The notes: generated by a model from the letters alone, not told the origin. A DNA stretch of 64,000 nt from an uncultured Gammaproteobacteria bacterium (GCA_964621305.1 CAZUOM010000001.1:165448-229447); one strand, 5' to 3'. Shown: positions 4,369-53,480, counted from the stretch's first letter. Program-made: numbers and translations.

Positions 4369-4440
4369 GCCGTCGTAGTTCAGTGGTAGAACGTCTTCTT
4401 GGTAAGAAGAAGGTCATGGGTCCAATTCCCATCGACGGCT
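4369..4440 (+). tRNA. tRNA-Thr (anticodon GGU)
   Basis: Acceptor GCCGTCG/CGACGGC, D arm GTTC-AGTGGTA-GAAC, anticodon arm TCTTC-TTGGTAA-GAAGA, T arm ATGGG-TCCAATT-CCCAT. TATAAT at 4354-4359. Confidence 0.85.
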
Positions 4441-4565
4441 CCGTGAATCTAATATCTCTTTTTTCTACCGCTGTATTTGCCGCTGAAGTCGTTCTTTCAC
4501 CCGTACCCGATGAATTGGCCGGTTATATATATCCAGGCTTTCATCAGCCGAGTGTTAGCTTTGGT

Positions 4566-11339: not shown

Positions 11340-11486
11340 TTACATCAAATACTCATCAATGATATAATTATGAAGTTAGGGCTGTGATGAAATGGTATCA
11401 TGGCGCTCTCCAAAAGCGCTCTTCCCCGTCCGAGTCGGGGCAGCCCTGCAAAATTACTACAAAAACTCAGGTTGCACCTAATTTTT

Positions 11487-33100: not shown

Positions 33101-36100
33101 ATCCTTGTCTCAAGCTTCCTGCGGAAAGCCCTGCGGCGCCCAACTGACTGGCGCACTGATCCGCACTTGCGCCGCCGGAAAACGCCGCAGCACACGCCAC
33201 TGCAGCTTGCAGAGAATTGACGGTCGTATCTGCCTTTTGAATCAAAGCTTTTGCATTGGGATTAAATGCCGCCTGCCTGGGTTGCGTCAGTCGCGCAAGG
33301 GAAACGCCTGCCATTGCCAGGGCAAGTTGACAGTTACCAGAACCGATTGATTCTTTACTGCAGACATCGGCAGCATTCCAAGAAAACACCACGGGTCCCA
33401 GATAGTGATTGATCCTTTCCAACGCTCCGGATATGCCCTTCGTAGGAACCAGACTCGGCTTGAGGGAATTGCTGACAGCTACGACTGCGTCGCTACTTTT
33501 TTCAACGAGAGCTAATTTTCCGCTTGCATTTCCGGCTTGGCCCACAAGTGCGAGTGCTCCCGCCGGTGCATTTTTGGCTACCTCAAGTTGCTTAATCCAT
33601 TTGGCTGTCTGGCTAATGCTCGTTGCGCTGGAGAGTCCGGCAAACGTCGTCATCATGGCTGAGCGCGCGCACTCTCCTCCGTCCATCTCATGCCCGAATG
33701 CGCACGCATGGGCAGTCTGTTGGAGGCTGTCGCCGGTAAAGTAGAGTCCGACCGCTGACCCGCCCACATTCAAGGCAACGGGAACGGACAAAATTTTTGC
33801 TCCGGCTTTGGCCAACTGAAAGAGTTGACCGCCCGGAGCTACCAACGCCCACGTCGACAATACCGGTTTTCCGTAGCTCATTCCCCAACCACGAACCATA
33901 TCCAGCCGTGCAACTGCCTGATTTTCCTTGGTTTCATTCGGATCCCACATCCTTCTTTCAGCATCCTTTATCAAAAATTGTCCCTGCAAGTATGATCCGG
34001 AGGTAAAATTATTAACCCCTACAACAAAGTGTTCCGCAAGATTAAAATTGTCAATATCTTTTTTCACCCGCACAAAATCCGCTTTGCCGGCAAAGATGTC
34101 CTTTGCGTTAACTCCCTCCCCTTTGGCAGACAGAATATTGGCAACGCTATCGCGCACAGCTCCCATGGCGATGAACTGCTCAACGAGAAATTGTTTGTCA
34201 GTTTTGCCGGCATTGTCTGGGTCGCTACTCCACTGCTTATAGGCAAGAGCATTTTTCCTCTCTTTTTCTAAATTGGCACGGTCTTCTGCCGATAGTGTGG
34301 CGGCATACGTATCGACGACGCGCTCAACGCTTGTTGGCGCATTATCTTTTGTTCTCGCAAGATCCTCCCGTAACCGTATCGCATTCACTGCTCCAGAAAG
34401 CACCCCGCGCCGCAGCCACCCTGGGTCTGCTGATATTGCGGCAGATACTTCGCGCGACACTAAGGCCCCAGTGGCAGCTTTGTCCTCCATCTCAATTGCC
34501 GTAGCAAGCTCTCGGACGACTTCATCGCGGGAGGTTGATTTATACCGTTTTGCGGCCGCTAGCGGATTGTAATATTCAGCGTCCCTAGTGATTAGTTCGG
34601 CGGCAAAGCCCCACTCTGCTTGTTTGGCGGGGCTAGATCCCAAAAGCTGCGATCCTCCTTCTACAACCGGAAGCATCTTGAGAGCATTGAACGTCTTGAC
34701 AACCGCGTTATCTATGAAGCTCAGCGACCGTATGTTCTTATCAACGCGCAACATATCGACTTCTCCCCGCAGCACCTGGCTCAAAATAATTCCTTGAGTA
34801 TCGTCGCGGATTGCTCCGATATCTCGAAGATCCACTTCACGCAAAATGAGGGCTTTAAGTTGTTCGAGCTGGAATTTTTCAGGCGTTGCGTCGATTTTCC
34901 CTCTTTTCCAATCCCTGTAAATGGAAGATTTTTCAACTGCAGCCAACTGGCGCAGCCTCTCGGTCTGACTCTGGGCCGCCAGCAGCGAATCTACTCGCAT
35001 ATCGATAAACGAGTCCCCACCTGCAGTCCGTACCAGAGCGCCGCCAGTGATATCGTTGAGTGTGCTTCCGAGCCAAATGAGCGGATGTTTGCCAAAATCT
35101 CTTGCTTCAGTCATGTGCTTCTCAATTTCAGTGGGAAGTCTTTCCCCTCTTTTCCATTCCGACACTGCTTGCTCTTCCTGACCTAAATTTTTTAGGCTGT
35201 TCCGAATGCGGTTAAGGGCATCTTCTTGGATCTTTGTAAATTCTTCTATAGATAACGCGCTACTGCCGGAATCGGCCTTGTATTTCTCAAAAATTCTTTT
35301 CCTATTGTTCTGGACAAGTTGATTCTCCTCATCTATTGCCCGGATAAGATTGGCTCGTTGATTTTGTACGACAGCCGTGTCAAGCAGAAATCCTACCTGT
35401 TCTTTTTCCAAACAACTCGTCAAGCCAGTCCCCAAATTGCCTTTGCACGCCGCAAGCTTTTGGAGGACAATGTTTGCTTTGGAGGCTATAGAAAGGCCAC
35501 CAAAAGCTATATTCTCAAGTGAAGCTTTCGCCCCTTCAATCATGTCTGCGTGGCATCTGGCATAGTACCGGCTATCCTGCCCGGTACAAACGGTGTCAAC
35601 GATTGCTCTTGCCGTTCTATCAATTACCTCGGTAGAGTTCAAAAGTGTTCCACTGCCACATTCATAAATATTCGAATCGCCTTGAAACTGGATGTATCTA
35701 TCCGTATATCTTTGCGATACGCACGATCGTCTGACTGATTCTGCCGGGACGTAGGTCGTCCTGGTCTTCAAATCGATAGTCAACCCTTGATCCAACACGT
35801 TTTTGGTCGTTTCGGCACAAGTTTTTTCCTTTCCCGCGCAGTAGGATGCAATGGCCCGATTCTCCTGGGCAATCGGATCAACGCTCGATATGTTTCCTGC
35901 GGCGATAAGCTTCTCCTGTTTGGTCTCACATTCTTTCGGATCAATTCCAAGCGCCTCAAGCCGCCGACACAAATCTCGTGCAGCAGCCGCTCCCGCGTTC
36001 GGGGTAGTTTTCGTCCCGATCCCGTAGTCGACGCCAGCACCTGTTCCATATACTTTGTTATCAAATGATATGGCATAATCATGCGTTCCTTCTTTTTTCG

Positions 36101-38399: not shown

Positions 38400-38431
38400 G
38401 TTTAGAATCTTATTAAAGAAGATCTATAAAT

Positions 38432-38461
38432 ACAGTATTAGTTTAAATGCTATTGTGTCAA
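38432..38461 (-). promoter_or_regulatory. candidate promoter of the giant gene
   Basis: On the minus strand: TTGACA, 18-nt spacer, TACTGT, about 30 nt upstream of the TTG start. Confidence 0.3.
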
Positions 38462-38475
38462 GTCGATGAAAAGAT

Positions 38476-39018
38476 TTACCGAAGGATTTTTGAGGCTGTT
38501 TGAGGTCTTCGGTTGTCGAAATGATATAGTACTAAAAAGGTTGCCATGAGAGCAAAAATTCCAGCTATTGCTGCCAACACGGACCAACTATCGACTAATC
38601 TTCTTACATTGTGCACAATCAAACGAAAGAAAAGCAAGAGGTAAGTTGTCTGAATTGGGAACGAGACCATGTGCCAATACCCAGCAAAGTTCCACCGGAA
38701 TGGATGGGGCATAGACCAATTAGTCATCTTGACTTTTCCCTGAATAAAATGGGTCAAAAAATCCAATACCAAAGCACAACCAACAGCCCACAACAAGTCA
38801 TTCGGAGTCAATTTATAACCCATCTTTACCGTTACGTAATATATCAAAACATTAATTAACGGAACAATAAAACCATCTCCCAACCAACCGGTGTAGTAAT
38901 CCAGAAGAGTCTTTTGCCCGACAAACGCGCGCGGATTTTCCCTTTTTTCCCAAATGTAATAGGATAACTGTACCCCGTAACTGAGAACAAAACTTGCAAT
39001 AAGAATCAATACATACAT
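38476..39018 (-). CDS. hypothetical integral membrane protein (180 aa)
   Basis: Four or more hydrophobic helices; no family recognised. Confidence 0.5.
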   Translation of the reverse strand: MYVLILIASFVLSYGVQLSYYIWEKRENPRAFVGQKTLLDYYTGWLGDGFIVPLINVLIYYVTVKMGYKLTPNDLLWAVGCALVLDFLTHFIQGKVKMTNWSMPHPFRWNFAGYWHMVSFPIQTTYLLLFFRLIVHNVRRLVDSWSVLAAIAGIFALMATFLVLYHFDNRRPQTASKILR

Positions 39019-39032
39019 ATACTGATTCTATC

Positions 39033-39764
39033 ATGCACTGCCCCAACGGCGACAACCTACTCATCGACAAAGCCCCAAAACACGACGGGTTAACTCTCCA
39101 TTACCTACTATGTCTCAGTTGTGGCGGCATCTGGGTGTCAAGTTTTGACGCAAACTACCTCAAATATGTCGATATTCCAGCTTCGCAAGGAGAGTCCTTG
39201 CGGACGCAAGGACTCTCCTTAATACTTTTATGTCCGCAATGCCGGAAGGGTCTTTTGAGAGCTACCGGCGACAATGTCCCGCCGGATGTTGTTGCCTATC
39301 GCTGCCCTGACGGTCACGGCTACTTTTTCCCGGCAGGAGAGCTCCTGAAGTTTAAGGAAGCGCAGGAGGTAAAAATTGAATATCACCAAAAATGGCATAT
39401 ACCGCTTGCCTCCGTTGCCAGCGCTCTCCTCATGACGATGACGGGCCTGATCATCTCCGCAGGCCTCATCATCGGCGTCATCGAGGGGGAGCGACAACAG
39501 ACGATCACCTCGCAAGCAGAAGAGATCATCAAATCTCAGAAAGCCTACGTGGACCAAACCAACCGCGCCGTCACCATCATCGCTCTGACGGCCGAACCGA
39601 TAGCCCTCACCGTCGTCGTTGACGGGAAAGAACATCCCATGCTAGCTCCCGATGCCCGCTCCCACGTCGTCCGCATTACAAACATCGCCCCCGGCGACCA
39701 CTCCTACTTCTTCCGCTTCCATAAAGAAAGGGAAAGGATAGAATCTCCAATATTCTCATTCTGA
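39033..39764 (+). CDS. zinc-ribbon-containing membrane protein (243 aa)
   Basis: CPNG...CLSCGG, CPQCRKG and CPDGHG Cys pairs, with a central TM helix LASVASALLMTMTGLIISAGLIIGVI. Confidence 0.5.
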   Translation: MHCPNGDNLLIDKAPKHDGLTLHYLLCLSCGGIWVSSFDANYLKYVDIPASQGESLRTQGLSLILLCPQCRKGLLRATGDNVPPDVVAYRCPDGHGYFFPAGELLKFKEAQEVKIEYHQKWHIPLASVASALLMTMTGLIISAGLIIGVIEGERQQTITSQAEEIIKSQKAYVDQTNRAVTIIALTAEPIALTVVVDGKEHPMLAPDARSHVVRITNIAPGDHSYFFRFHKERERIESPIFSF

Positions 39765-40004
39765 AATCTTCATTTCTTTCAGTATTTCTTGAAAAAATTA
39801 GGAAATCCTGATATAATAAGCCGTTTCCACAATGTGTCAATTTTCGCCGACCATCTGTGGTCTAAAATTCTAGATATAGTAATGTATTCTAGGATATAGC
39901 TCGAGATTTGAGCTACGCGAATTCCTCTTACTGAGCGTCTTCGCGAAGTACTTTAACAAGTTACGGTGCAGATATTGGTAGGGAGGACGATGGACGGATG
40001 TAGC

Positions 40005-40118
40005 CTACGGGAGACGGACAAAGAGAAGGATCGTCAAAAGAAGCGCAATTACGGCCAGACCGAACGCAATCTGCGCTCTGACGTTGATATCGGTAAAATC
40101 CATTTCTTTGATTTTCAT
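40005..40118 (-). CDS. possible 37-aa hydrophobic peptide
   Basis: MKIKEMDFTDINVRAQIAFGLAVIALLLTILLFVRLP, with AAGGAA 9 nt upstream of the ATG. Not in the ORF track because it is under 60 aa. Confidence 0.25.
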   Translation of the reverse strand: MKIKEMDFTDINVRAQIAFGLAVIALLLTILLFVRLP

Positions 40119-40247
40119 GGTGTTATATATTCCTTAACTGATACGCGATGAATAAACACACGATAGCAGACACAATGTTGTTCGTCAAGGCTACGATGCG
40201 CTGACTGAAACTCAAATAGTTAATGCAATTCTGAGTACGAAACGTCT

Positions 40248-40793
40248 TCAGGGGATTTGGCTGTCAGAAGTGTATTTATATGCTTTTTTCCCTCTTCCAA
40301 GACGTTTCCAGTTGGGATTGAGGCTGCCCAGAATTATGAAGTCATCGAGCATGTCAAAACCATAATGGAGAAGCATCGCGCCAAATAAAACCACGGCCGT
40401 CTGCCACTCGTAGAAATACGCCAGAATACATAATGCTAACAAGACTCCCATCGTGAAAAAATTATGGGAAAGCAAGCTCGTATTCTGCTTATGTCCGTTT
40501 TCCCACAGATTCCACAGATTCCGTATCTGAAAATGGCGAAGGTAAAAGCGGGTCTGGACGGAAAATGCATCTTTCCTTCCGTAGGTATAAAAATAGAGGA
40601 TGTGGTCGATATCCGGGAGCACCGAGGCTCCCACTGAGAGCCAAATCCAGCGAGGATTCAACTGCCCCCACAGCTCCCTAAGAAACCACGCCCATATTAA
40701 GCCAATGAGAACATGGGTGATTTCGTGCTTTGTGTGCCAGATGACCCACGCCACACTCTTGACTTTAGCCACTGACCTGCGGATTCGACGCAT
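40248..40793 (-). CDS. hypothetical polytopic membrane protein, possibly a membrane-bound metal-dependent hydrolase-like protein
   Basis: 181 aa, several TM helices, conserved His/Asp such as PDIDHILYFYTYG. Weak assignment. Confidence 0.35.
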   Translation of the reverse strand: MRRIRRSVAKVKSVAWVIWHTKHEITHVLIGLIWAWFLRELWGQLNPRWIWLSVGASVLPDIDHILYFYTYGRKDAFSVQTRFYLRHFQIRNLWNLWENGHKQNTSLLSHNFFTMGVLLALCILAYFYEWQTAVVLFGAMLLHYGFDMLDDFIILGSLNPNWKRLGRGKKAYKYTSDSQIP

Positions 40794-40810
40794 ATATCAA
40801 GTGTATCACA

Positions 40811-40862
40811 CAAAAAAATCCCCGGCTGATGGACGCTTTTATCCATTGCGGGGATTTTTTTG
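40811..40862. terminator. bidirectional rho-independent terminator
   Basis: AAAAAAA-ATCCCCG-(24-nt loop)-CGGGGAT-TTTTTTT. The A-run and T-run on both sides would serve the minus-strand zinc-ribbon gene and any plus-strand read-through. Confidence 0.55.
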
Positions 40863-41265
40863 AAATGCTCCATTCAGTGGAGCAGAGATCTGAAAAGCCA
40901 AAATTTAGCTCCTCAAAACAACTGCTCCACTCAACAAACTTACAACAAACCTACAACAAAAAAAACAAAAAATGGGACAACAGGAGGAGGACAGCGTGAT
41001 AAATCGAAATTATTGATGATTATGATATAAGTCCTCCCCCCTTTGTTCCACAACTAGCTAGCTATCTATATCACGCGTCTCCGTGCCCGGCTGTGTTGCC
41101 GGTTATGATCACGCCGATTCCTACGACAGCGGGCACGATGACAACCAAAATCAAAAATACTATCTCCAACATGTTGCCTCCTTGGTTCTTTGTTTTGGTA
41201 ATGTGCACTCAGAACTTAACTTATAGTATACCACACTCCCATAGAAAAGCAACTGTCTCGGGTGT

Positions 41266-41484
41266 TTACTGCTTTGGCCATGAGAGTTTGACTCCGCAGG
41301 CAGGGCAATACAGCCATTGCACCTGGCCCAGTCCGTAGCTGCAGGCAGGACACTGCTTGCCTCCCCGATTGACCATAAGGTTCTGAATAAGACTCTGCGG
41401 CGGCGCCGATGCCTCAATGAGTGGTGCGGCACACTCGTTGCAGAAATTGCCTGCTTTCTCACCGTGGATGCGGCATACTTTCAT
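41266..41484 (-). CDS. double zinc-ribbon protein (72 aa)
   Basis: CRIHGEKAGNFCNEC ... CPACSYG ... CPACG, four CxxC pairs. Preferred over the overlapping 41160-41462 ORF. Confidence 0.45.
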   Translation of the reverse strand: MKVCRIHGEKAGNFCNECAAPLIEASAPPQSLIQNLMVNRGGKQCPACSYGLGQVQWLYCPACGVKLSWPKQ

Positions 41485-41547
41485 CGGGATTCTCCTTTCT
41501 TAAGCCTGACGTCATTTTGATTTTAAAGAACCATATGTCCTATAATA

Positions 41548-41576
41548 TTGACATCAGTGTTATTTTATGGTATACT
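41548..41576 (+). promoter_or_regulatory. sigma70-like promoter for the 41585 gene
   Basis: TTGACA (41548-41553), 17-nt spacer, TATACT (41571-41576). Confidence 0.45.
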
Positions 41577-41584
41577 AACAGGTT

Positions 41585-42442
41585 ATGAGCGCAGCAGCAA
41601 GGGCTGAAATAGCAGTCCACGGCATACATTTTTCTCCGAACGGAAAAGAACCTAAGATGTTTACGCCTGCCTCGCATCGCGGCCTGGTTCACGGCATCGA
41701 CGCAGACTTCAAACTACCGTTTGTCATGGCAAAGCCGTCTTGGATGAATGAGCACATTGAGACAATGCGTAATAAATTTGATATATACACCCAGCCTGCC
41801 TCGGAAAGAGATTTTCGTGAAGCCATGAGAGCAGTAACAATTAGGAAAGACGGCAAAGTAGCCTTTCGTAATCCCTCCCTGCCATATCCGAAGCCGACCA
41901 GGCCCCACGCAAAGCTTAATCGCCACCGCCATCCATCTCCTGCACCCGAGGATGAACGACGTGATGACGAACCGAGGTGGGAACGGCTCCCAGATCATGT
42001 TGATGAAGCGAATCGCGCAGACTTATTCGATCCTACCCTCGACCGATTCCACAGAAAAAACTCTATCAGAATCCAAAATCCGGCCTATCTATTGCATATG
42101 CCATCACGTCCTGCCGTCGAGCCTAGAGGCAACGGCCGTGACATGCCCGATTCTTTAATTCAAAGACTTTCCAGTGCAATCAGTGCAGTTGATAGAGCTG
42201 CCTCAAACGGAAACACTCTAATAGAACGGCAGCGGGCAACGATTGATTATTTTATGCGCAATGGCGCGATAAAAGCAGAATTCACGAGCAGGGCTCGAGC
42301 CCCCAATAAAATACATACCATACTGAAAATTTCTGTTCGTTCTTATAAGGACAAAGGCCAATTTATCGGCCTCGGTGGTAGCATAGCACGCCAAATCAGA
42401 CGAATCGTCGGTGTGAACTCCGTTATGGTCAGTGTCGATTAA
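41585..42442 (+). CDS. hypothetical protein (285 aa)
   Basis: Basic, His-rich ORF behind a good promoter. No family recognised. Confidence 0.5.
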   Translation: MSAAARAEIAVHGIHFSPNGKEPKMFTPASHRGLVHGIDADFKLPFVMAKPSWMNEHIETMRNKFDIYTQPASERDFREAMRAVTIRKDGKVAFRNPSLPYPKPTRPHAKLNRHRHPSPAPEDERRDDEPRWERLPDHVDEANRADLFDPTLDRFHRKNSIRIQNPAYLLHMPSRPAVEPRGNGRDMPDSLIQRLSSAISAVDRAASNGNTLIERQRATIDYFMRNGAIKAEFTSRARAPNKIHTILKISVRSYKDKGQFIGLGGSIARQIRRIVGVNSVMVSVD

Positions 42443-42513
42443 AATCGATCGTTTTTTGCACCCCGACGCCTCCTGTGCTACACTCCCAATCGGCCAATTC
42501 AATAGGCTGATCT

Positions 42514-42543
42514 TTGACAAGTGATAAAAAATTCTCGTATAAG
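42514..42543 (+). promoter_or_regulatory. promoter of the nadD-nadE operon
   Basis: TTGACA (42514-42519), 18-nt spacer, TATAAG (42538-42543), then AGGAG and the GTG start at 42555. Confidence 0.4.
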
Positions 42544-42554
42544 GAGATGAGACA

Positions 42555-43187
42555 GTGTTTGATAAAATTGCCCATCCGGAAGAAGTCAGGGGAAGCAATG
42601 TCGGGATAATGGGAATTACCGCTGACCCGCCACACCGAGGTCATCGGGAATTAATCGCCGGAGTCCTTGCATGCAATCGTTTTACCACGGTCGTGTTGTA
42701 TCCGACCGGGGAACAACGAGATGATAAAACAATTTCCGCTGGTCCCAACGACCGGGCAGCCATGCTCATGCAAACGCTCAACCCGGAGTTATTCGGGTAT
42801 CCGACAAAACTTATAGTCGTTTTTGCCGATATGTACGGCAAAAACACATACACGATCAAACTCCTGCAAGCGTATCAGAAACGATTTCCGGACAAACACT
42901 TTTCATGAATCACAGGGAGTGATTCTGACATCGGCACCTGGCACTGCGGCAAAGAACTGCTTGAAAAATGGCATTTTTGCATCGTACCGCGGCCGGGATT
43001 TGACAGGCTCCCGCCAGCCCTGCCGGTTCACTACGAAATTCTCGACGTGCCGCACGGGCTCCACGTTTCAAGTACGCAAATCAAGCAGCTCATAAAAAAC
43101 GGCGAACCGTTTGAAAGATTCGTTACGCCGGCAGTCGCCCGGTTTATAAAGGAAAATAGACTTTACAAATACCAAGAAAGACGGTAA
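42555..43187 (+). CDS. nadD: nicotinate-nucleotide adenylyltransferase interrupted by a single in-frame TGA at 42906-42908 (pseudogene or recoding)
   Basis: N-terminal part GIMGITADPPHRGHRELI is the (H/T)xGH nucleotidyltransferase motif. Downstream in the same frame: ITGSDSDIGTWHCGKELLEKWHFCIVPRPGF ... VSSTQIKQLIKNGEPFERFVTPAVARFIKENRLY, the NadD C-terminus. The TGA falls in the conserved FFIIGAD-like segment (FS*ITGSD). Ends at TAA 43185-43187, inside the RBS of nadE. Confidence 0.6.
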
Positions 43188-43193
43188 GGAGGA

Positions 43194-45164
43194 ATGCCGA
43201 TGTCACGGATAAAAATCGGCCTGGCCCACACAGACAGTTGGGTCGGCGCCTTTGACGACAACTTTGCCAAAATCTGCCGATCTGCAGAACGCGTGGCTTT
43301 TGCGCAAAGCACCTTTGGCGTCTTTGGTGAACAGGTTATCTCGGGCTACCCAAGCGAAGATCTCACGCATTGGCCAAGTTTCGTTGCGGGACAGATGGAA
43401 AAACTCGTGAAGTTTGCCCGATTTACCAAAACGCTTGAGTTTAAGACCATCTTTGTCGTCGGTCTCACGGTTGCTCACGGAGGCCACAACTACAATTGTG
43501 CGGCCCTCGTCTACGACGGCAACATCATCGGCATCGTTCCGAAGCAAAAGCTACCCAACTACGATGTCTTCTACGAAATGCGCTGGTTTACACCGGGCTT
43601 GCCATATCAGTTCGAAACAGTCACGCTTGCCCCCGGCATCAGCGCACCGTTTGGGGATATAATCTTTGCAACCCCGTTTTGCACATTTGCCCTTGAAGTG
43701 TGTGAAGACATCTGGTCAAACGAAGGGCCAATGGCGCGGCGCGCATATTCGGGAGCGGAGCTCGTGATGAATATATCAGCGTCTCCCTTTCGGATCGGCG
43801 TCGTCGATACAAGACGGGAAATGATTGCGACACGAGCCTCAGACAACCAAGCAACCATCGTCTACTGCAATAAAGTCGGCGGTCAGGGTAGCCTAGTGTT
43901 TGATGGTGGCGGATTTATCAACCAAAACGGGAAGATGGTATACGAATCGCCTCGCTGGCAGGAAACGGCGTCATCCTGCGTTGTTGACTTGGACATCACG
44001 CGGGCGCGTCGAACAAAAAATACCACATGGCGAACGGACGCAGCAGAATTTGCGAGAAAGAATAGTCCGGTTCAAACCGTGATGGTTGATATGGGTGATT
44101 TTGTTTTACCGCAATATCGCGTTTTTGAACCGTTGAGACAATCCAAGAGCGTCTTCATGCCTGCATTTCAAAAGCCAAAAAATCCGCGCGCCGATTACTT
44201 TAACGATCTCATCGAAGCCATGATCTGGGCCCTCGGCGGGTACTTTGAAAAAACAAAGGCATTTCAACGGATTGGCGTTGCTCTTTCCGGCGGTCGTGAT
44301 TCAGCGCTTTCCTTCATCATTGCATATCTTTATGCCAAGAGGAAAGGCGCTCATGTCTCTGATTTCCTCCATGCATTCTCGATGCCCTCTAGGTTTAACA
44401 GCAAAACAACCAAGAGCATTGCGCGAATGCTTTGCCAAGAACTCGGCGTTTCGTTTATGGAACTTCCTATCGAGGAAGCGGCTCGTCGGGAAACCCGCGC
44501 AACCAAGATGATGCTTGGAGGCAAAGATCCTACTGCAATCACCAAACAAAATATCCAGGCACGAATCCGTGCCGCTCGCATGTGGAACTGGGCAAATACA
44601 GCACATGCGATGATGCTCCAAACGGGCAACATGAGTGAGAAAGCGGTTGGATATACGACAACGATCGGAGACCTCTCTGGAGCATACTCGCTTTTGGGCA
44701 ATCTACCCAAAACCGTCATCAACGAGCTCCTGCGGTACCTGTACGAAGTGTACAAATGGAAAGCGCTCGGCGAACTTTTGAAAACCAAGGCATCTGCTGA
44801 ACTTGCCAACGGGCAAAGCGATGAGGCAGATCTCATGCCGTTTCCGGTCCTGGATGCTTGCTTTTTCCACTTCGTCGGAGACAAGATGGATGTAGCAACG
44901 CTCTATCTCACGCTTCGAGCAAAATGGAGCGATAGTCAGCTGCGAAAGATGGATCCAACGTATACCAAAGGGAAGTTGAAAGAATGGGTCGAAAAATTCA
45001 TCACCCTTTTCTTTCGATCCATCTACAAGTGGGTCCAGGCGCCAGAGACAGCACATCTGGCATCAGTGGATTTGGACCGCGAGCGCGCACTGCAGCTTCA
45101 AGCCGCAAGCTCTACCCAGTGGCTTGGAAACGCAAGAGAGGTCCTCGCCTCCCTTCCGGACTGA
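43194..45164 (+). CDS. nadE: glutamine-dependent NAD+ synthetase (N-terminal CN-hydrolase domain plus C-terminal NAD synthase domain)
   Basis: 656 aa; nitrilase-like N-terminal half; PP-loop SGGRDSALS in the C-terminal half; GGAGG RBS 8 nt upstream. Confidence 0.85.
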   Translation: MPMSRIKIGLAHTDSWVGAFDDNFAKICRSAERVAFAQSTFGVFGEQVISGYPSEDLTHWPSFVAGQMEKLVKFARFTKTLEFKTIFVVGLTVAHGGHNYNCAALVYDGNIIGIVPKQKLPNYDVFYEMRWFTPGLPYQFETVTLAPGISAPFGDIIFATPFCTFALEVCEDIWSNEGPMARRAYSGAELVMNISASPFRIGVVDTRREMIATRASDNQATIVYCNKVGGQGSLVFDGGGFINQNGKMVYESPRWQETASSCVVDLDITRARRTKNTTWRTDAAEFARKNSPVQTVMVDMGDFVLPQYRVFEPLRQSKSVFMPAFQKPKNPRADYFNDLIEAMIWALGGYFEKTKAFQRIGVALSGGRDSALSFIIAYLYAKRKGAHVSDFLHAFSMPSRFNSKTTKSIARMLCQELGVSFMELPIEEAARRETRATKMMLGGKDPTAITKQNIQARIRAARMWNWANTAHAMMLQTGNMSEKAVGYTTTIGDLSGAYSLLGNLPKTVINELLRYLYEVYKWKALGELLKTKASAELANGQSDEADLMPFPVLDACFFHFVGDKMDVATLYLTLRAKWSDSQLRKMDPTYTKGKLKEWVEKFITLFFRSIYKWVQAPETAHLASVDLDRERALQLQAASSTQWLGNAREVLASLPD

Positions 45165-45195
45165 CGGAAAAAACATTCTAACGGAGGAAAATCAA

Positions 45196-45513
45196 ATGAA
45201 CAAGAAACATTGGTGGGAAGAGATCATCGAGGCCGTAAAAGAAAGCATCGCCTTTCGTGCCAAGCTAAACCCTCGGAGGGTATTAGATAAAGTGGCGATT
45301 AAGGTGGTCAGCCTCCAAATCTGTCGACTCTTGAAAGTTCTTGAGTGTGTGGATGACATTCCATTTGCTCGTCGGGCAAAGGTATACGATCAGCTTGATC
45401 AACTGATCCAGCTGGACGAGAAGGCAGGTAGCGACTCGACAGTTCAGATCGTCCTTGCCGGTCTGAAAATTCAGTACATGCAATATCAAGTGAAAGAGAA
45501 GAAGGAAGAGTAG
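45196..45513 (+). CDS. hypothetical small protein (105 aa)
   Basis: Internal ATG with GGAGG 8 nt upstream. The track start at 45124 overlaps the nadE 3-prime end and is less likely. Confidence 0.4.
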   Translation: MNKKHWWEEIIEAVKESIAFRAKLNPRRVLDKVAIKVVSLQICRLLKVLECVDDIPFARRAKVYDQLDQLIQLDEKAGSDSTVQIVLAGLKIQYMQYQVKEKKEE

Positions 45514-45525
45514 AAACCCTCAACA

Positions 45526-45584
45526 AACCCATGACCAGGCTGATGCAATTATGCATCAACGCAGAACGGTCATGGGTTTTTTTT
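45526..45584 (+). terminator. rho-independent terminator
   Basis: AACCCATGACC-(31 nt)-GGTCATGGGTT followed by TTTTTTTT. Confidence 0.6.
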
Positions 45585-45606
45585 GGCAAGAAGGCAACCC
45601 TATAGT

Positions 45607-45635
45607 TTGACTGTGCATGCCAGGCATGGTAAAAT
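45607..45635 (+). promoter_or_regulatory. near-consensus sigma70 promoter of pncB
   Basis: TTGACT (45607-45612), 17-nt spacer, TAAAAT (45630-45635). Confidence 0.55.
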
Positions 45636-45677
45636 ACATAGGTTCTCTCTGGCTCATTGACATACAAATGAGAATTC

Positions 45678-45751
45678 CCTCCTGTTGGTATTGCCATGAT
45701 GTACTCAAAATGTAGAGTACAGCAAGCAATACCAACAAAATTTTGAAGGAG
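45678..45751 (+). promoter_or_regulatory. 5-prime leader hairpin that sequesters the pncB Shine-Dalgarno sequence; candidate riboswitch or translational control element
   Basis: CCTCC (45678-45682) pairs with the SD GGAGG (45747-45751). The 12-bp stem TGTTGGTATTGC / GCAATACCAACA encloses a nested hairpin GTACTC-aaaatgta-GAGTAC. An 11-nt A/U-rich internal loop lies on the 3-prime side. Confidence 0.4.
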
Positions 45752-45756
45752 GCAGC

Positions 45757-46971
45757 ATGATTGTTGGCCATCAAATCATTCAAGGCAAGTGGGACTCGGA
45801 TACGTACGCGTGGACCATGGCAAATGCGCAACAGTTAAACGACCAGAGCCACGGCCGCAACCTTTGGCTCCACTACAAACTCATCCATCGAAACAAATGG
45901 GGGTTTCCCCCAAATATGGTCGATGTGTTTCGGGAACAGGTCCAAAACATGACCACGCTCGCTACCCCAGCCCATCAAACGGCTCATTTCAAAGCGCGTG
46001 CCACATGGGTGAGACCGTCGTTTATTGACTGGTTTGCCAATGAATTTCGCTTTAATCCCAATCAGGTCACGATCGGAAGCGACAGCGGTCGACTGTCTGC
46101 GGATATCATCGGACCGGTTCCGGATGTGATGTTTTGGCAGTTTCCGATCATGCAGACAACCAATGAACTCGACAACATCCTTTCCGGTCGCAAACCCAAA
46201 CCTGGCTGGGAAAGACGCACCAGCAATAAAGGAATACTCTGGAAGAAGCACGGCGTGCCGGTTGCAGAATTTGGCTCGCGGCGCAGATTTTCCTATGCCG
46301 TCCAAAAACGAGCCCTTGAGATTCTTATCGAAACGATGGGGTTGAAGGAAAACGGGGGCCTTCTTTTGGGAACAAGCAACGGGGCTCTGGCGGGAGACGT
46401 CTTTGCGCAACCTATGGGCACCAAAGGACATGATCGCAAACAGATCTACGCAGCACTCGTTGGGTATCTCCTGGCAAACAAGGTCGAGCGCGCGGAGTGG
46501 TTGGAGGCGTACCCTGAATTTCCCGGATACGATCTTCCCGATACCTTCACTACAAAGGTTTATCTGCGCGATTGGGACGACCGGACGATCCTCGCCTTCA
46601 CAGGAATGCGTCAGGATTCGGGCGACCCGTACTGGTTTACCGATGCATTCGTAAATTTCTACAGGTACTGGCGGGTGCCGTTTAACAACAAAGGTATGAT
46701 CTACAGCAACAAGCTGGACTCGCTAACCGCGGTACAACTTGTTGAATACAACCGAAAAAACAATTTGTTCACCGCATCCTGCGGCATCGGCACCAACATC
46801 ACCAACGACGTCGGCTGGCCGGCTCCGGATTACGTCGTCAAATTGTGGGCGGTCAGTCTGGATGCTGGCAAAACATGGATTAGTGTATGCAAACTCTCTG
46901 ATGATGACGGCAAAGTGACTGGCGCCCCGGATGCAGTCGCCCGCGCGAAGCGGGAACTGGGGATTGGGTAA
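45757..46971 (+). CDS. pncB: nicotinate phosphoribosyltransferase
   Basis: 404 aa; LLLGTSNGALAG and PMGTKGHD motifs of the NAPRTase family; sits in a NAD salvage context with nadD and nadE. Confidence 0.75.
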   Translation: MIVGHQIIQGKWDSDTYAWTMANAQQLNDQSHGRNLWLHYKLIHRNKWGFPPNMVDVFREQVQNMTTLATPAHQTAHFKARATWVRPSFIDWFANEFRFNPNQVTIGSDSGRLSADIIGPVPDVMFWQFPIMQTTNELDNILSGRKPKPGWERRTSNKGILWKKHGVPVAEFGSRRRFSYAVQKRALEILIETMGLKENGGLLLGTSNGALAGDVFAQPMGTKGHDRKQIYAALVGYLLANKVERAEWLEAYPEFPGYDLPDTFTTKVYLRDWDDRTILAFTGMRQDSGDPYWFTDAFVNFYRYWRVPFNNKGMIYSNKLDSLTAVQLVEYNRKNNLFTASCGIGTNITNDVGWPAPDYVVKLWAVSLDAGKTWISVCKLSDDDGKVTGAPDAVARAKRELGIG

Positions 46972-47000
46972 GATCGAAAATCGTTGATAATTCACCACAG

Positions 47001-47049
47001 CACCTGCGATAGCGGGAACTTTTCCGACTAATTGCAGGTGCTTTTTTTT
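47001..47049 (+). terminator. rho-independent terminator after pncB
   Basis: CACCTGC-(26 nt)-GCAGGTG followed by CTTTTTTTT. Confidence 0.55.
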
Positions 47050-47088
47050 GTGGGAAAAACATTGTTGACCTGCTGATTATCTGCTACC

Positions 47089-47394
47089 TGAGTTTCTCAA
47101 ATTCTCCATTTCCCCATTAACTCGAGGCTAAATTTCCAAAATTCAGGGCACTAAGGGGTATCATTGTGGGATGACGTATATTCGCCGGGTAAAAACTGCC
47201 AGATATGCAGTTGCCATTCAAGTGGTCCGGAAGTAGCAGGGGGAAATTGTCCAATTCCGCTTTACTGGGCGAGGTGCTGCGGGAACAGTACCGCCTCATG
47301 AACGGCCGGGAGTATCCAGCAGAGGCAGACATTCCTCCGGTTATCCACACGCTATTACAAAAACTTCGCTTAGGGCACTAATTTGAGAAACTCA
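47089..47394. repeat. about 300-bp segment bounded by 15-bp inverted repeats (TGAGTTTCTCAAATT / AATTTGAGAAACTCA) plus the direct repeat GGGCACTAA; possible MITE-like element
   Basis: IR-L 47089-47103, IR-R 47380-47394. GGGCACTAA at 47146 and 47373. Contains only short ORFs (e.g. a 58-aa plus-strand ORF 47205-47381). Lies between the convergent pncB and purM genes. Confidence 0.3.
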
Positions 47395-47507
47395 AGTTCC
47401 AGAGCGCTTGTCTGGTTGCCTGCCACTTAGTCTGCCGCAGCAGAAGGTCCACTGTTTTTCAATGGACGCAGATGTAAACTAGGTTGCTCATACTTTAAGA
47501 AAAACCG

Positions 47508-48563
47508 TCAGTCGCGAATCTTGAGCGTCTCACGGGAAAAAACTATGTTTTTTGGTTTAATGACGACTTGTTTTTTCCCATTTCTCACGCTCCCCGCGTG
47601 CCACGCGTGAAATCCCTTCTTTTCTGCAATCGCAATGGCCCGCGCCACAGCATTTGCTCGTACGTAGAGCGCAAATCCGGCGCCCATGTTGAAGGTTTCA
47701 AACATCTCCCGATCACTAAGCTTGCCGTGTTTCTGTAAAAAGGAAAATAGCGGTGAGTCTGGAGGCGTCTCTTCGATCACGTACGTAAATGCTCGGGTTG
47801 GTCGCATGAGCTTTCGCCACCCGTGGCCGGTAACGTTGACCGCGTAATGAATATCAACGCCTGCGTCAAAAAGCGCTGACATGAGCCGGGCATAGATATG
47901 GGTAGATCGAAGCAGCGCTTCGCCATACATGAAGCCGTTTGTAAGCTTCGTGGCATAGCCTCCCGGCAGAACATCCGCAATCGCGCGGGCAAGCGTCAAA
48001 CCGTTTGCATGGATGCCACTGCTTTCGACCAAAACGATTGCGTCGCCGTGAGTAATTGCCTCTCCCAAAAGCAGGCGCTTTTTGGGTTTGACGATACCGA
48101 TTGCCGACCCGGCAATGTCTATAACAGCCGGCTCAACAATCCCTTTAAGCGTGGGCGTTTCCCCGCCGCCCCAGACCGCACCCGCGAGACTGCAGGCGTT
48201 TGCCCAACCACGAATCAGATCGCCTGCCCGCTTTTTATCTTCAAACCATCGACAGTCGCCAACGGCAAAGTAGGCATTGACGACTTCAGGTTTGGCGCCA
48301 ACCGTGATGAGATCGTTAACGATCATCGCTAGCGCGTCTTGGGCGATGGCATCGTAGTAGGTCTTGCCGTTAATAGGCCGCATTGCGTCAGCCACGAGAC
48401 TCTTTGTTCCGAGCCCCTCAATCACCATCGCTCGATAACAATCCCGCTCTTCCCAGACATAGGCCGACTCTCCGCGAATCGCGCTTCCTCCTGTTCTTTT
48501 CGCGGCGCGCTGCGCGGCGATTTTGAAGGAATCAAGAATCGTATAGTTTACCTGATAGTGCAT
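47508..48563 (-). CDS. purM: phosphoribosylformylglycinamidine cyclo-ligase (AIR synthetase, PurM-like)
   Basis: PurM/AIRS-family architecture as the last gene of the pur operon. Start placed at ATG 48561-48563 (MHYQ...) rather than the GC-rich 55-aa extension in the track. Confidence 0.65.
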   Translation of the reverse strand: MHYQVNYTILDSFKIAAQRAAKRTGGSAIRGESAYVWEERDCYRAMVIEGLGTKSLVADAMRPINGKTYYDAIAQDALAMIVNDLITVGAKPEVVNAYFAVGDCRWFEDKKRAGDLIRGWANACSLAGAVWGGGETPTLKGIVEPAVIDIAGSAIGIVKPKKRLLLGEAITHGDAIVLVESSGIHANGLTLARAIADVLPGGYATKLTNGFMYGEALLRSTHIYARLMSALFDAGVDIHYAVNVTGHGWRKLMRPTRAFTYVIEETPPDSPLFSFLQKHGKLSDREMFETFNMGAGFALYVRANAVARAIAIAEKKGFHAWHAGSVRNGKKQVVIKPKNIVFSRETLKIRD

Positions 48564-49519
48564 AGCGAGTCGCGGATGCGTTCTTCGATCGTGTACCCAA
48601 ACGCCCGGAATGCCCGGCCGGTAAGTTTTTCGTAGACGGCGATGTAGCGCCGGGCAAGCGCAACAATGAGATGTCTGGGCATTTCGGGCGGCGGCCCGTC
48701 CCCGCGGTAGCCGCGCTTGGCATACCAAAGTCGCAGGAACTCCTTGTCAAAGTTCTCCGGCTCAAGCCCGCGCTTGACGCGTTCCTTATACGTATCGGAT
48801 ACCCAGAAACGTGAGGAGTCGGGCGTATGGATTTCGTCAATAAGCATAAGTTTGCCCTTATATAATCCAAATTCGTATTTGGTATCAACAAGGATAAGGC
48901 CGCGTTTTCTGCAAAGCCTGCTCCCAAAATCGAATAGCTTACGCGAAATTTTTTCCATCTCTTCATAGAGTTTTTTCGGAACTATCTTCTTTTTTATGAT
49001 TTCCCCGCGGGTCAGCCGTTCGTCATGAAGCGCGCTTCCGGCAAGAGGGTGCGTTGTTGGTGTAATGATCGCAGAGGCAAGTTGCTGATTCTTTTTCAAT
49101 CCGTCGGGAAATCTGATGCCATAGATCATCCGCTCGCCGCGCTCGTAGGAGTACCATATGGAGGTTTTCGTGACACCGGAGATGTAACCGCGCACGATCA
49201 TCTCCACCGGAATCGGCTTGCATTCACGCGCAATCATCACGTTGGGGTCCGGTACGGCGATCATGTGGTTGGGGACGATGTGTTTGGTTTTCTCAAACCA
49301 AAACTGCGACAGGAGATTAAGAACCGCTCCCTTAAATGGGATATGTCCGAGGATGACGTCAAATGCCGATTGTCGATCCGTGGTCACGAGAATCCTCTTG
49401 CCCTCCACTTTATAGAAATCTCGCACCTTGCCCTGATATTTTTTCCCCAAGCCAGATACGTCAACGGTTTTGAGCACCGACGGTAACGCGCGAAGTATTG
49501 TTTTTGATTGCACCATCAT
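48548..49519 (-). CDS. purC: phosphoribosylaminoimidazole-succinocarboxamide synthase (SAICAR synthetase, long form)
   Basis: 323 aa; YKGKVRDFY ... LILVDTKYEFG and general PurC-like similarity. Confidence 0.75.
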   Translation of the reverse strand: MMVQSKTILRALPSVLKTVDVSGLGKKYQGKVRDFYKVEGKRILVTTDRQSAFDVILGHIPFKGAVLNLLSQFWFEKTKHIVPNHMIAVPDPNVMIARECKPIPVEMIVRGYISGVTKTSIWYSYERGERMIYGIRFPDGLKKNQQLASAIITPTTHPLAGSALHDERLTRGEIIKKKIVPKKLYEEMEKISRKLFDFGSRLCRKRGLILVDTKYEFGLYKGKLMLIDEIHTPDSSRFWVSDTYKERVKRGLEPENFDKEFLRLWYAKRGYRGDGPPPEMPRHLIVALARRYIAVYEKLTGRAFRAFGYTIEERIRDSLCTIR

Positions 49520-51413: not shown

Positions 51414-52469
51414 TTATGTCGTTATCTTCTCTAAAGCATTATGTTCCGTCGCATCGTGGATTTCCATGGCGATGCGTCTTCCCATGCTTACTGATTCTCC
51501 ATATAAATACCCGCTGTACGGGGTTGCGGCAATTCCCGGCGAGCCGGGCATACGCGGCGAGACATCAACCACGACGATCTCCTTTTTTCGCTTCCCGGAT
51601 ACGATGATCGCCTGCAGGGCAAACGGCCCGATGATTCCTGGCGGGACGAGCGTTTGGGTGGCTTTTATAAACCGCTCGGCCATGGCAAACGCCTCCTCCA
51701 GCATCGATTCTACCACGGTGACGGCGATATGCCCAGTTTCTTCAAACGAAACAGTAACGTTTTTCTGATACGCAGCCGGCAAGCGCACTAGGCCGTCGAT
51801 ATTCGTCTGACGGCGCGTGTCCGTCCCCAAAAGTTCCAGCCGTTTACGAATCGGAGAATAAAAAAAATGGAAGTTCACCGCTACGCCAACCGCGTATTCT
51901 TCGATAACCGCCCGTTCCAGCGCCGGCGCTGTTATTTTTCCTGATCGTAGCATTGCCCGCGACGTTTGCAGGAAGCTTTTTTCATCACGGCAAAGGAAAA
52001 ATGCCCGTTCCCACGGACGGTCTTTCTCGCTTACCTTGACTATCACAAGCCGGTCGATGTTCTTTGGTGAGAGAAAATGTTGCGGAAACCGAATATTGGC
52101 TTCTTTGAGAAGGTCATACTGATTTGGACGTTTTGCGCGCTCTTCGTACTTCAAGAGGTATTTATTGCCGAACAAAGGCACCGTAAAGCGCGTCTCGATA
52201 GCCTTGTAATCAAAGTTGCAATATGCCTCAAACGACCGGTGCGGCACAAACGCACAGCACTTTTTTTGTAACGTTTTCTGCACCGCGGGCGTAAGTATGT
52301 CAGAAAACTGCTCAAGCACAAGGCACTCGTCCACACAACATTTGTAATACTCACGATAGGTTTTTTCCCTGCCTTTTTGCGCAACGACGAGCGTGCCAAG
52401 CCCTTCATCTTTGGCCCCGCGGCAGATGTCCAGAGCAGAATGACTCCCAAGGGTAGCAATGGTAACCAT
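51414..52469 (-). CDS. purP: archaeal-type FAICAR synthetase (PurP-like, ATP-grasp), copy 1
   Basis: N-terminus MVTIATLGSHSALDICRGAKDEG, characteristic of PurP; 351 aa. Confidence 0.6.
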   Translation of the reverse strand: MVTIATLGSHSALDICRGAKDEGLGTLVVAQKGREKTYREYYKCCVDECLVLEQFSDILTPAVQKTLQKKCCAFVPHRSFEAYCNFDYKAIETRFTVPLFGNKYLLKYEERAKRPNQYDLLKEANIRFPQHFLSPKNIDRLVIVKVSEKDRPWERAFFLCRDEKSFLQTSRAMLRSGKITAPALERAVIEEYAVGVAVNFHFFYSPIRKRLELLGTDTRRQTNIDGLVRLPAAYQKNVTVSFEETGHIAVTVVESMLEEAFAMAERFIKATQTLVPPGIIGPFALQAIIVSGKRKKEIVVVDVSPRMPGSPGIAATPYSGYLYGESVSMGRRIAMEIHDATEHNALEKITT

Positions 52470-52475
52470 ATATAG

Positions 52476-53480
52476 CTAGCTTACTAAGCAATCAACGATC
52501 CCTTTGCGATGGGCGATTTTAATATCCCGCGCAATCCTCCTTCCCGTGCTCATTGGTTCATCATATAGGAGTGAAGCGTACGGGGAACTATCGATGAAGA
52601 GATTCGTGCCGGCGACGATGCGGCAGGATACTTCTATCACATAAAACTGCTGGTCGGGAGTGACGATCGTCTCCAGACAAAACGGCCCGAAGAGGCCCCG
52701 CTCGTCAATAAGCTTTTGCGATGTGACTACCAACCGTTCGGCCATTGCGTACGCCTCCGGCAGGAGCGACTCACGCAGAGACAAGGGGCTATTGCCGACC
52801 ACGACAAATGACGGCGTGATATCAATGCGCTCTTGGTGCGCAAGCGGCATGCGCCCCAGAGAATCAACGTTTGTTTCGTATCTCCGGTCGATACTTAACA
52901 GTTCCATGGTCTTCGTTATCGGTGAGTAATAATAGTGAAGGTAGATGGGAACGCCAACGATGTACTCCTGCACAATGAAGTCCTTCTTGGTAAATAACGA
53001 AATCTTTTTCTCAAAATCCTTTTGACTATGCGCGACGAAATACCCTCTTCCGCCGTCGGCGCCATAGGACTTGACGATCACCGGCCGGTCAATCCGGTCG
53101 CGGCGGGAAAACTTGCGCGGCAGCCTAATCCCTGCAGACGCAAGCCAGTTAAGCTGCTTTTTGCGGTCTGCTTCCCAGTCCAGCACTGCTTTGTTGCCAA
53201 AGTACGGTAGACTTATTGCTTTGTTGCCCTCGATACCGAGGTAGGCAATGAACGATCCGTGAGGAATAACAATAACATGGCGTCTGGAAATACTATGCTG
53301 TACCTCGGGGAAGTCTCCGTATGAAGATATGGTGATAATGTCATCGATGAAGCGAAACCGCCGGTAAAACGCCTCGCGGTCGGATTGCGTGATGAGCAGT
53401 GTCGAAAAACCCTCGTCTTTTGCCCCTTTCATTATCTGAAGGGCGGTATGGCTCCCCAGCGTTGCAATCGTATACATCAT
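52476..53480 (-). CDS. purP: archaeal-type FAICAR synthetase (PurP-like), paralogous copy 2
   Basis: MYTIATLGSHTALQIMKGAKDEG; 334 aa; paralog of the adjacent gene. Confidence 0.6.
   Translation of the reverse strand: MMYTIATLGSHTALQIMKGAKDEGFSTLLITQSDREAFYRRFRFIDDIITISSYGDFPEVQHSISRRHVIVIPHGSFIAYLGIEGNKAISLPYFGNKAVLDWEADRKKQLNWLASAGIRLPRKFSRRDRIDRPVIVKSYGADGGRGYFVAHSQKDFEKKISLFTKKDFIVQEYIVGVPIYLHYYYSPITKTMELLSIDRRYETNVDSLGRMPLAHQERIDITPSFVVVGNSPLSLRESLLPEAYAMAERLVVTSQKLIDERGLFGPFCLETIVTPDQQFYVIEVSCRIVAGTNLFIDSSPYASLLYDEPMSTGRRIARDIKIAHRKGIVDCLVS

Follow-up and report, generated by a model that had tools for sequence, protein, structure and literature searches.

Introduction

UGA is the leakiest of the bacterial stop codons. 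In the coat/A1 gene of phage Q-beta, read-through of UGA is programmed, with a UGA-A context and tRNA-Trp as the decoder, and both have counterparts at the nadD locus described here; programmed sites of the Q-beta type, however, are conserved and extend a protein that is already complete, whereas the nadD site is not conserved and breaks a catalytic domain. Misreading of UGA by tRNA-Trp occurs in Escherichia coli and Bacillus subtilis, especially with A at the +4 position, as stated in PMC5289835 where it cites Engelberg-Kulka (1981) and Matsugi and Murao, and the passage of PMC7918605 that cites Karow (1998) gives a read-through of 6% for catA86-TGA in wild-type B. subtilis. As far as those passages describe them, the leaky UGA alleles of E. 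coli, Salmonella, and B. subtilis (catA86-TGA; PMC5289835, PMC7918605) are similar to the present case in having an in-frame UGA-A where UGA otherwise serves as a stop, with tRNA-Trp(CCA) as the sole available decoder. Unlike these classical alleles, the nadD UGA replaces a Trp codon and its misreading would restore the wild-type protein, a prediction made here from the sequence.

In-frame stop codons in genes that purifying selection continues to maintain are widespread among bacteria and mostly short-lived (Belinky et al., 2021, PMC7918605). The nadD locus likewise carries a single nonsense substitution, and the remainder of the gene looks selectively maintained, but Belinky et al. (2021) used many genomes and post-event dN/dS, whereas the present case involves one genome and one diverged orthologue.

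Lineages in which UGA has been reassigned to Trp, including the Patescibacteriota family JAKLIH01, have neither UGA stops nor RF2 (PMC13092985). In these codes (table 4: Mycoplasmatales, Ca. Zinderia, Ca. Hodgkinia, and JAKLIH01; PMC13092985), UGA stands where relatives have TGG, as in the nadD gene. However, table-4 genomes contain many sense UGAs and no UGA stops, usually encode a tRNA with the UCA anticodon or a tRNA-Trp with a 4-bp anticodon stem, and have lost RF2 (PMC13092985). [quoted passage not shown]

Bacterial NadD, represented by the structures 5db4 and 1kam in PDB and by the NCBIfam models NF000840 and TIGR00482, is the closest described protein. The window gene is similar to it in end-to-end alignment, in the HxGH and SSTxI(R/K) motifs, and in its location near nadE and pncB, while it differs from typical bacterial NadD in belonging to a divergent subfamily and in having an interrupted frame. 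In comparison with these systems, the locus is ordinary: a conserved bacterial gene with a nonsense UGA is a well-described situation.

Results and discussion

The nadD reading frame and its internal stop codon

Positions 42555-43187 of the window constituted a single NadD frame of 210 codons, which starts with GTG at 42555, terminates with TAA at 43185-43187, and is interrupted solely by TGA at codon 118, with both halves in the same frame around it (Table 1). This is in accordance with the first-pass annotation, which described nadD as one continuous frame with a single TGA; no other stop was present among the 210 codons. ORF prediction with the standard code accordingly gave a 117-codon ORF (42555-42908), and the N-terminal part alone was predicted as a 117-aa protein (P0002) in the gene-caller annotation.

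The premature stop deletes 44% of NadD, essential motifs included. G121-x-D123, the invariant W129, R146, and SSTQIK (43068-43085) are all encoded 3' of the TGA, and the earliest canonical in-frame start after the TGA is GTG 43047. As read here, a single TGA within one NadD frame is confirmed as a real observation.

Table 1. Coordinates of the features in and around the interrupted nadD gene, counted from the first nucleotide of the window.
Feature	Position	Strand	Remarks
tRNA-Trp, anticodon CCA	11378..11449	+	only candidate UGA decoder seen in the window
Shine-Dalgarno AAGGAG of nadD	42541..42546	+	8 nt 5' of the GTG start; direct sequence reading
nadD, N-terminal part (codons 1-117)	42555..42905	+	with PPHRGH nucleotidyltransferase motif at 42627-42644
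In-frame TGA (codon 118), followed by A (UGA-A)	42906..42908	+	orthologous codon TGG (Trp) in L002, L019, and L017
Hairpin GAAUCAC-AGGGA-GUGAUUC, 7 bp	42907..42925	+	overlaps the stop codon; by-product of coding I-T-G-S-D-S
nadD, C-terminal part (codons 119-210 and TAA)	42909..43187	+	no further lesion
Shine-Dalgarno AAGGAGG of nadE	43186..43192	+	overlaps the nadD stop TAA; 7 nt before ATG 43200
nadE, glutamine-dependent NAD synthetase	43200..45164	+	intact; ends with TGA; alternative start ATG 43194
pncB, nicotinate phosphoribosyltransferase (404 aa)	45757..46971	+	intact

Identity of the nadD product

The joined read-through product matched the NCBIfam NadD model NF000840 over residues 14-206 (E 3e-23). 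When W was inserted at codon 118, the E value was 1e-23 and residues 14-206 corresponded to profile positions 6-200 of 201. A tblastn search with the intact orthologue P0001 as the query yielded one HSP at 42555-43175 that passed through the stop (E 9e-96), a similarity far greater than would be expected by chance. The earlier assignment of both parts to NadD was thus supported by a profile and an alignment that each run across the stop. Taken separately, the N-terminal half gave only a sub-threshold match in Pfam and the C-terminal half gave nothing relevant; the joined halves passed the cut-off of PF01467 (25.7 vs 21).

The window NadD missed the NCBIfam equivalog cut-offs, with 84 vs 150 bits for NF000840 and 78 vs 112 for TIGR00482. 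Since the intact P0001 also fell below these cut-offs (94 and 73, respectively), the low scores are attributable to the divergence of the subfamily and not to the stop. In a PDB sequence search with P0001, all 17 matches were NadD, and solved NadD structures aligned through the site of the stop.

The N-terminal part contained the (H/T)xGH nucleotidyltransferase motif within DPPHRGH at residues 24-30, of which D24, P25, H27, G29, and H30 are invariant in the NadD alignment. The G-x-D loop, the invariant Trp located 11 residues past the stop position, and the SSTxIR-type motif were all present 3' of the TGA, and the K in place of R in SSTQIK was common to the window protein and the intact P0001. 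The window gene is assigned to a divergent subfamily of NadD, and from its gene context (nadE and pncB downstream, and a related cluster in L019) its full-length product is predicted to have adenylyltransferase activity on NaMN. The 117-residue fragment, being devoid of the G-x-D loop, W129, R146, and the SSTxI(R/K) motif, would almost certainly be inactive.

Ancestral state of codon 118

When 5.8 billion protein clusters were searched, one close orthologue was obtained, P0001 (207 aa, 66% identical, full length), plus the window's own fragment P0002. In an exhaustive phmmer search of P0001 against 1.84 billion representatives, only two matches fell below 1e-30, behind which NadD relatives formed a graded series. 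The only matches with more than 44% identity to the window NadD or its orthologue were the 117-aa fragment itself and P0001.

At the position of the stop, P0001 reads RITWITGSDSDISTWHCG, whereas the window reads KHFS, the stop, and then ITGSDSDIGTWHCG. The TGA aligned to the third residue of the F-Y-F-I-I-G-A-D strand, which agrees with its previous placement in the FFIIGAD region. At the DNA level, the codon was TGG in L002, which encodes the 66% identical NadD, vs TGA in the window. L019 and L017 also have TGG; the codon in orthologues, which the first-pass annotation had named as a check, was thereby found to be TGG in all three orthologues readable at the DNA level. Among the 60 nearest family representatives, the column of codon 118 held 36 W, 21 F, two L, one I, and no C, and W was found in 22 of the best 24 of these 60, with the motif W-[YFI]-T-G-x-D.

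The lesion accordingly reads as a single G>A transition, TGG>TGA, at the codon of the conserved Trp-118. Very probably, the locus carries a real and unprogrammed TGG>TGA nonsense allele.

The ancestral Trp codon, which makes a passive leak self-correcting, had been missed in the earlier annotation.

Condition of the sequence downstream of the stop

Between nadD of the window and that of L002, synonymous sites were saturated (pS 0.76), and the non-synonymous difference (pN) amounted to 0.18 in the part before the stop and 0.23 in the part after it. Because of this saturation against the only close orthologue (66% identical), dN/dS after the mutation is not estimable. Relative-rate counts of window-unique changes with outgroups gave 10 vs 4 downstream (p 0.18) and 5 vs 6 upstream. 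Of 25 highly conserved columns, 22 were kept, and the remaining three changes were conservative; one of them, the Lys of SSTQIK, also occurs in the intact orthologue. Neither a second stop nor a frameshift was found in the 92 codons after the TGA.

By these measures the downstream part of nadD is undecayed, although their power for a recent event is low. As the frame 3' of the TGA is undecayed and nadE and pncB are intact, either the mutation is very recent or nadD is still under selection.

Neighbouring genes and distribution of the NAD cluster

The nadE gene starts 13 nt downstream of nadD, and pncB lies 2.6 kb downstream. The start of nadE was placed at ATG 43200 in the Logan gene call and at ATG 43194 in the NCBI call, corresponding to proteins of 654-656 aa. 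NadD is the only consumer of the NaMN that PncB produces, and its product is in turn required by NadE. The three genes pncB, nadD, and nadE together are predicted to form a nicotinate salvage route to NAD.

The first-pass annotation had taken the coupling of nadD and nadE as an argument that the full-length frame is still functional. This argument does not hold, as nadE has its own Shine-Dalgarno sequence, and the region around it was not sequestered in structure (z -0.74). Because this strong and unsequestered Shine-Dalgarno sequence lies 7 nt before ATG 43200, nadE can be initiated independently. The layout of nadD and nadE is inherited, and a fresh pseudogene would look identical.

The designation of nadD as essential in that annotation was an assumption for an uncultivated and poorly placed bacterium.

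No further nadD copy was detected in the 64 kb window by tblastn with P0001. An NAD cluster consisting of NrtR, pncB, nadD, nadK, and nadE adjoins purM in L019, a distant relative. The cluster was not syntenic in closer relatives: pyrG follows the purine operon in L015, and nadD stands alone in L002. A search with PurD identified 12 relatives at 65-72% identity, followed by Patescibacteria (53-58%) and Firmicutes (55-56%); vs these 12 relatives, the window NadD had one close orthologue. The NadD subfamily is patchy among relatives, and the copy may be accessory in this lineage. Scans of genome contigs revealed no close relative, the best NadE match being 48% in MAGs of Acidobacteriota and Gemmatimonadota, and a metagenome scan found only a 27% relative.

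Possible partial read-through or recent loss of function

We tentatively favor the following reading. In a divergent nadD, the TGG of Trp-118 very probably became TGA through a G>A substitution that is evolutionarily recent and has nothing programmed about it. Termination at this UGA would yield the inactive 117-residue fragment, and full-length NadD would be produced only when the ordinary tRNA-Trp(CCA) misreads the UGA, which the UGA-A context would favor. Because such misreading would re-insert the ancestral Trp, every read-through product would be wild-type NadD. The allele would then act as a leaky hypomorph that supplies a few percent or less of the normal amount of NadD and keeps the pncB-nadD-nadE salvage route alive. 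We consider this reading as a whole, a recent unprogrammed TGG>TGA allele with a useful leak, to fall just short of an even chance. The substitution, its position on a Trp codon, the use of TGA as a standard stop, and the intactness of the downstream frame and the neighbouring genes are shown by the sequence, whereas we infer that the leak reaches a useful rate and that the cell depends on the window copy of nadD. The predicted tryptic peptide that spans codon 118 with Trp is HFSWITGSDSDIGTWHCGK.

There are 76 possible single-substitution nonsense changes in nadD, and TGG>TGA accounts for three of them, corresponding to 4-10% depending on the weighting of transitions. This is the sole class that a leak would repair exactly. 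The class of the lesion moderately suggests a filter of tolerance, although the argument is post hoc. Also in favor of a leak, pncB and nadE are intact, and both would be useless without the NadD step. The UGA-A context was also found at four of the 11 other TGA-ending ORFs; since these apparently normal terminators share it, UGA-A alone is no mark of a leaky site. Against a leak, a few percent of an essential enzyme would be a heavy cost, and because of this cost, fixation of the allele would need drift or hitch-hiking.

Quite possibly, though on balance we lean against it, the window copy is instead a fresh and non-functional pseudogene. According to this explanation, TGG>TGA killed the copy, the NadD activity is provided by another gene or NAD or a downstream precursor is taken up, and there has been no time for decay. 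The loss of 44% of the protein with its essential motifs and the lack of a canonical in-frame restart before GTG 43047 are consistent with this, and nonsense codons commonly arise by G>A at TGG. The host is uncultivated and deep-branching, with Patescibacteria among its nearest named PurD relatives (56-58%), and the NAD cluster is not syntenic in L015 and L002. The single close NadD orthologue, compared with the 12 PurD relatives, suggests an accessory gene. A weak and non-significant excess of window-specific changes 3' of the stop (10 vs 4) points in the same direction. However, the 92 downstream codons have no second lesion and retain every conserved motif, pncB and nadE, with which nadD shares the pathway, are intact, and the window contains no second nadD. 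In addition, TGG>TGA would make up only about 4-10% of random nonsense changes as the first knock-out, and less when indels are counted.

The leaky hypomorph and the fresh pseudogene are inseparable from sequence alone. Both start from a recent nonsense substitution, and the answer lies within the three options of the first-pass annotation, namely very recent pseudogenisation, a sequencing error, and programmed read-through; the last two fared poorly, as described below.

Authenticity of the stop codon

A 23.5-kb contig of the Logan assembly SRR6943130, reported from two samples, contained 14,874 bases that were 100% identical to window positions 32555-47428, including the TGA, although some reads may be common to these samples and the deposited genome. 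In addition, the TGG version of the window protein was absent among approximately 15 billion predicted proteins.

These results bear on whether TGG is the true or majority codon and the TGA stems from a sequencing or consensus error or from a minor strain variant. The codon differs by one base from the orthologous codon, the genome is metagenome-derived, and the same reads may underlie both the deposited genome and the Logan contig, all of which would be compatible with such an origin. However, two assemblers gave identical sequences over 14.9 kb, the Logan contig was obtained from two samples, and no TGG version of the protein was encountered. We therefore regard an artefact or minority allele as very unlikely, and the separate Logan assembly with the same TGA speaks against the sequencing or assembly error that had been considered previously.

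Genetic code and tRNA-Trp

TGA terminates 12 of the 32 long ORFs in the window (37%), including the giant ORF and nadE, in agreement with the earlier description of TGA as a genuine stop elsewhere in the window. The Pfam-matched genes ending in TGA were nadE, purM, purE, purQ, purF, and the histidine phosphatase gene. Homologues aligned through the last NadE residue before its TGA, the Pfam profile of purQ was covered to its end at the TGA, and the profile of the histidine phosphatase was nearly exhausted before the TGA. The 16 Pfam-matched genes and the giant ORF (8748 codons) together contained 202 in-frame TGG and no in-frame TGA. When the window was re-scanned with TGA as a sense codon, no other TGA interruption with homology support was found. 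In closer relatives, TGA was used as a stop in 8 of 19 (L015), 3 of 10 (L016), and 3 of 9 (L002) cases. A change of the code (tables 4 and 25) was rejected on the basis of the 12 TGA stops among 32 ORFs and of 202 TGG vs the one TGA in nadD.

In the distant relative L019, none of 20 genes had a TGA stop.

The tRNA-Trp of the window has A1-U72, G73, a U11-A24 pair, and an atypical T-loop with C at position 55, and it was missed by the Rfam tRNA model. The U11-A24 pair is native to many tRNA-Trp genes and hence is not diagnostic. The anticodon stem is a normal one of 5 bp and not the 4-bp read-through form, and no tRNA with a UCA anticodon was found within the 64 kb window.

Active decoding of the UGA could be due to a UCA suppressor tRNA encoded elsewhere in the genome or to an unusually UGA-permissive tRNA-Trp(CCA). 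It could also reflect reassignment of UGA to Trp at an early, still ambiguous stage, or an evolved regulatory read-through by which the level of NadD is held down. The exact position of the UGA on a conserved Trp codon and the atypical tRNA-Trp (missed by Rfam, with C55 in the T-loop and the U11-A24 pair) are in line with this, and A24 is what converts the tRNA-Trp of E. coli into the Hirsh UGA suppressor (PMC13092985). Suppressor tRNAs are present in 0.3% of standard-code bacterial genomes, and Patescibacteriota have undergone several reassignments of UGA (PMC13092985); the distant relative without TGA stops in 20 genes would also fit. Nevertheless, the window has one such TGA vs 202 TGG and ends 37% of its ORFs with TGA, closer relatives terminate with TGA normally, and the stop is absent from every orthologue read. 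The normal 5-bp stem of tRNA-Trp, the lack of a UCA tRNA in the window, and the non-significant downstream structure also stand against it, and we consider active decoding improbable to a high degree.

One form of it, in which the atypical tRNA-Trp(CCA) decodes UGA ambiguously while RF2 still terminates most genes, would represent an intermediate towards UGA-to-Trp reassignment, and we give it only a slim chance. If it were true, TGG>TGA drift would be tolerated even in a core NAD gene. It would also place an ambiguous intermediate in or near the radiation of Patescibacteria and neighbours, where UGA has been reassigned repeatedly, with L019 already showing no TGA stop in 20 genes.

Evidence against programmed recoding and selenocysteine

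Programmed read-through, an option in the first-pass annotation, was unsupported: the stop is not conserved, the orthologues having TGG. The 7-bp hairpin at 42907-42925 was partly kept in L002, without compensatory changes. It is wrongly placed for a SECIS element or a read-through stimulator, and a ribosome at the stop would unwind it. A role as a stimulator structure was rejected, as the hairpin overlaps the stop, codes for I-T-G-S-D-S, and shows no compensatory changes in L002. No Rfam family was found at threshold near nadD, neither a riboswitch nor another known RNA. Splitting of the gene with re-initiation was likewise rejected, because no canonical start occurs until GTG 43047, which lies past G121-x-D123 and W129, and a frameshift bypass is irrelevant to halves that share a frame. 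TadA-type A-to-I editing, which would convert UGA to UGI, presumably acts at its U-A-C-G loop motif, and this motif was absent from CAUGAAUC.

Decoding of the UGA as selenocysteine is almost inconceivable and was rejected: although Sec is encoded by UGA and the site has a small hairpin, relatives carry Trp, Phe, Leu, or Ile and never Cys here, the position is in a hydrophobic core strand and not at a redox site, the hairpin starts inside the UGA and not approximately 11 nt downstream, the TGA region folded no better than shuffled sequence (z -0.33) and was not SECIS-like, and no tRNA-Sec was found within the 64 kb window.

Implications

For annotation, nadD should be flagged as a gene with an internal stop at a Trp codon under the standard code, rather than annotated as the 117-aa protein given in public records. 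The TGA in nadD provides no evidence for an alternative code. A neat feature of the locus is that the enzyme made when tRNA-Trp passively misreads the stop would be exactly the wild type. If the organism has no other NaMN/NMN adenylyltransferase and substantial read-through does occur, a core cofactor pathway would be running on the leak of a stop codon.

Stop-codon use and the NAD cluster of a distant relative

Of the 20 genes called in the distant relative L019, 12 were terminated by TAA and the other 8 by TAG, with no TGA stop among them; in-frame TGA was likewise missing from these genes, as compared with 77 TGG codons. Out of frame, the TGA trinucleotide was frequent in this locus (17.6 per 1000). 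UGA could be unused in the L019 genome, or not serve as a stop there, for instance through loss of RF2. TGA stops were in normal use among the relatives closer to the window than L019. The NadD homologue of L019 was encoded within an NrtR-pncB...nadD-nadK...nadE...purM cluster.

Features of the window and of the distant relative L019
Feature	Position	Strand	Details
Giant ORF	12153-38399	-	8748 codons; 3' end TGA-GCT-TGA
purM, longest ORF	47508-48728	-	TTG start; 406 aa
purC	48548-49519	-	upstream neighbour of purM
Two tandem purP genes	51414-53480	-	DUF1246/DUF1297; archaeal-type FAICAR synthetase
'tRNA-Lys(ttt)'	57421-57512	-	ARAGORN call; 92 nt; within purD coding region
L019	1-20627		contig CAYSOG010000004.1, NCBI GCA_964432675.1

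tRNA genes and gene starts

The tRNA-Trp gene at 11378-11449 (+) was not reported by the Rfam tRNA model, even at E ≤ 1. It showed several oddities, including a T-loop (UCCGAGU) in which position 55 is C, a U11-A24 pair, a variable loop of 3-4 nt, and the absence of the position 26 spacer. The ARAGORN-called tRNA-Lys inside purD, for which no Rfam match was obtained, is probably a false positive.

Two candidate starts were identified for nadE, ATG 43194 (656 aa, NCBI call) and ATG 43200 (654 aa, Logan call); a Shine-Dalgarno sequence, AAGGAGG (43186-43192, +), is spaced suitably for the latter. For purM, the longest ORF shared 181 bases with the end of purC. The real start probably lies downstream of its TTG, because the purM product of the relative L015 comprises only 368 aa.

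Gene content and relatives

The operon purF-purN-purD-purL-purQ-purP-purP-purB-purE-purC-purM was bacterial apart from the purP pair, the two copies of which share one frame, separated by TAG and two codons. The same duplication, in the same layout, was found in L015. Pfam gave no match for many of the ORFs in the window's left third. In the giant ORF, the sole Pfam matches were an intein splicing domain and a NYN nuclease domain nested in the intein, both near mid-protein (residues ~4390-4680); no Pfam domain was recognized in the remainder.

No close relative of the source organism was found among 185,579 GTDB species representatives, the top NadE match being 48% identical. By PurD, the nearest sequences were on Logan contigs (65-72% identity), followed by those of Patescibacteria and Firmicutes (~56-58%). 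The lineage, as represented by L015 and its fellow relative L016, possesses full sets of purine, pyrimidine, arginine, and ATP-synthase genes, in which it differs from typical Patescibacteria.
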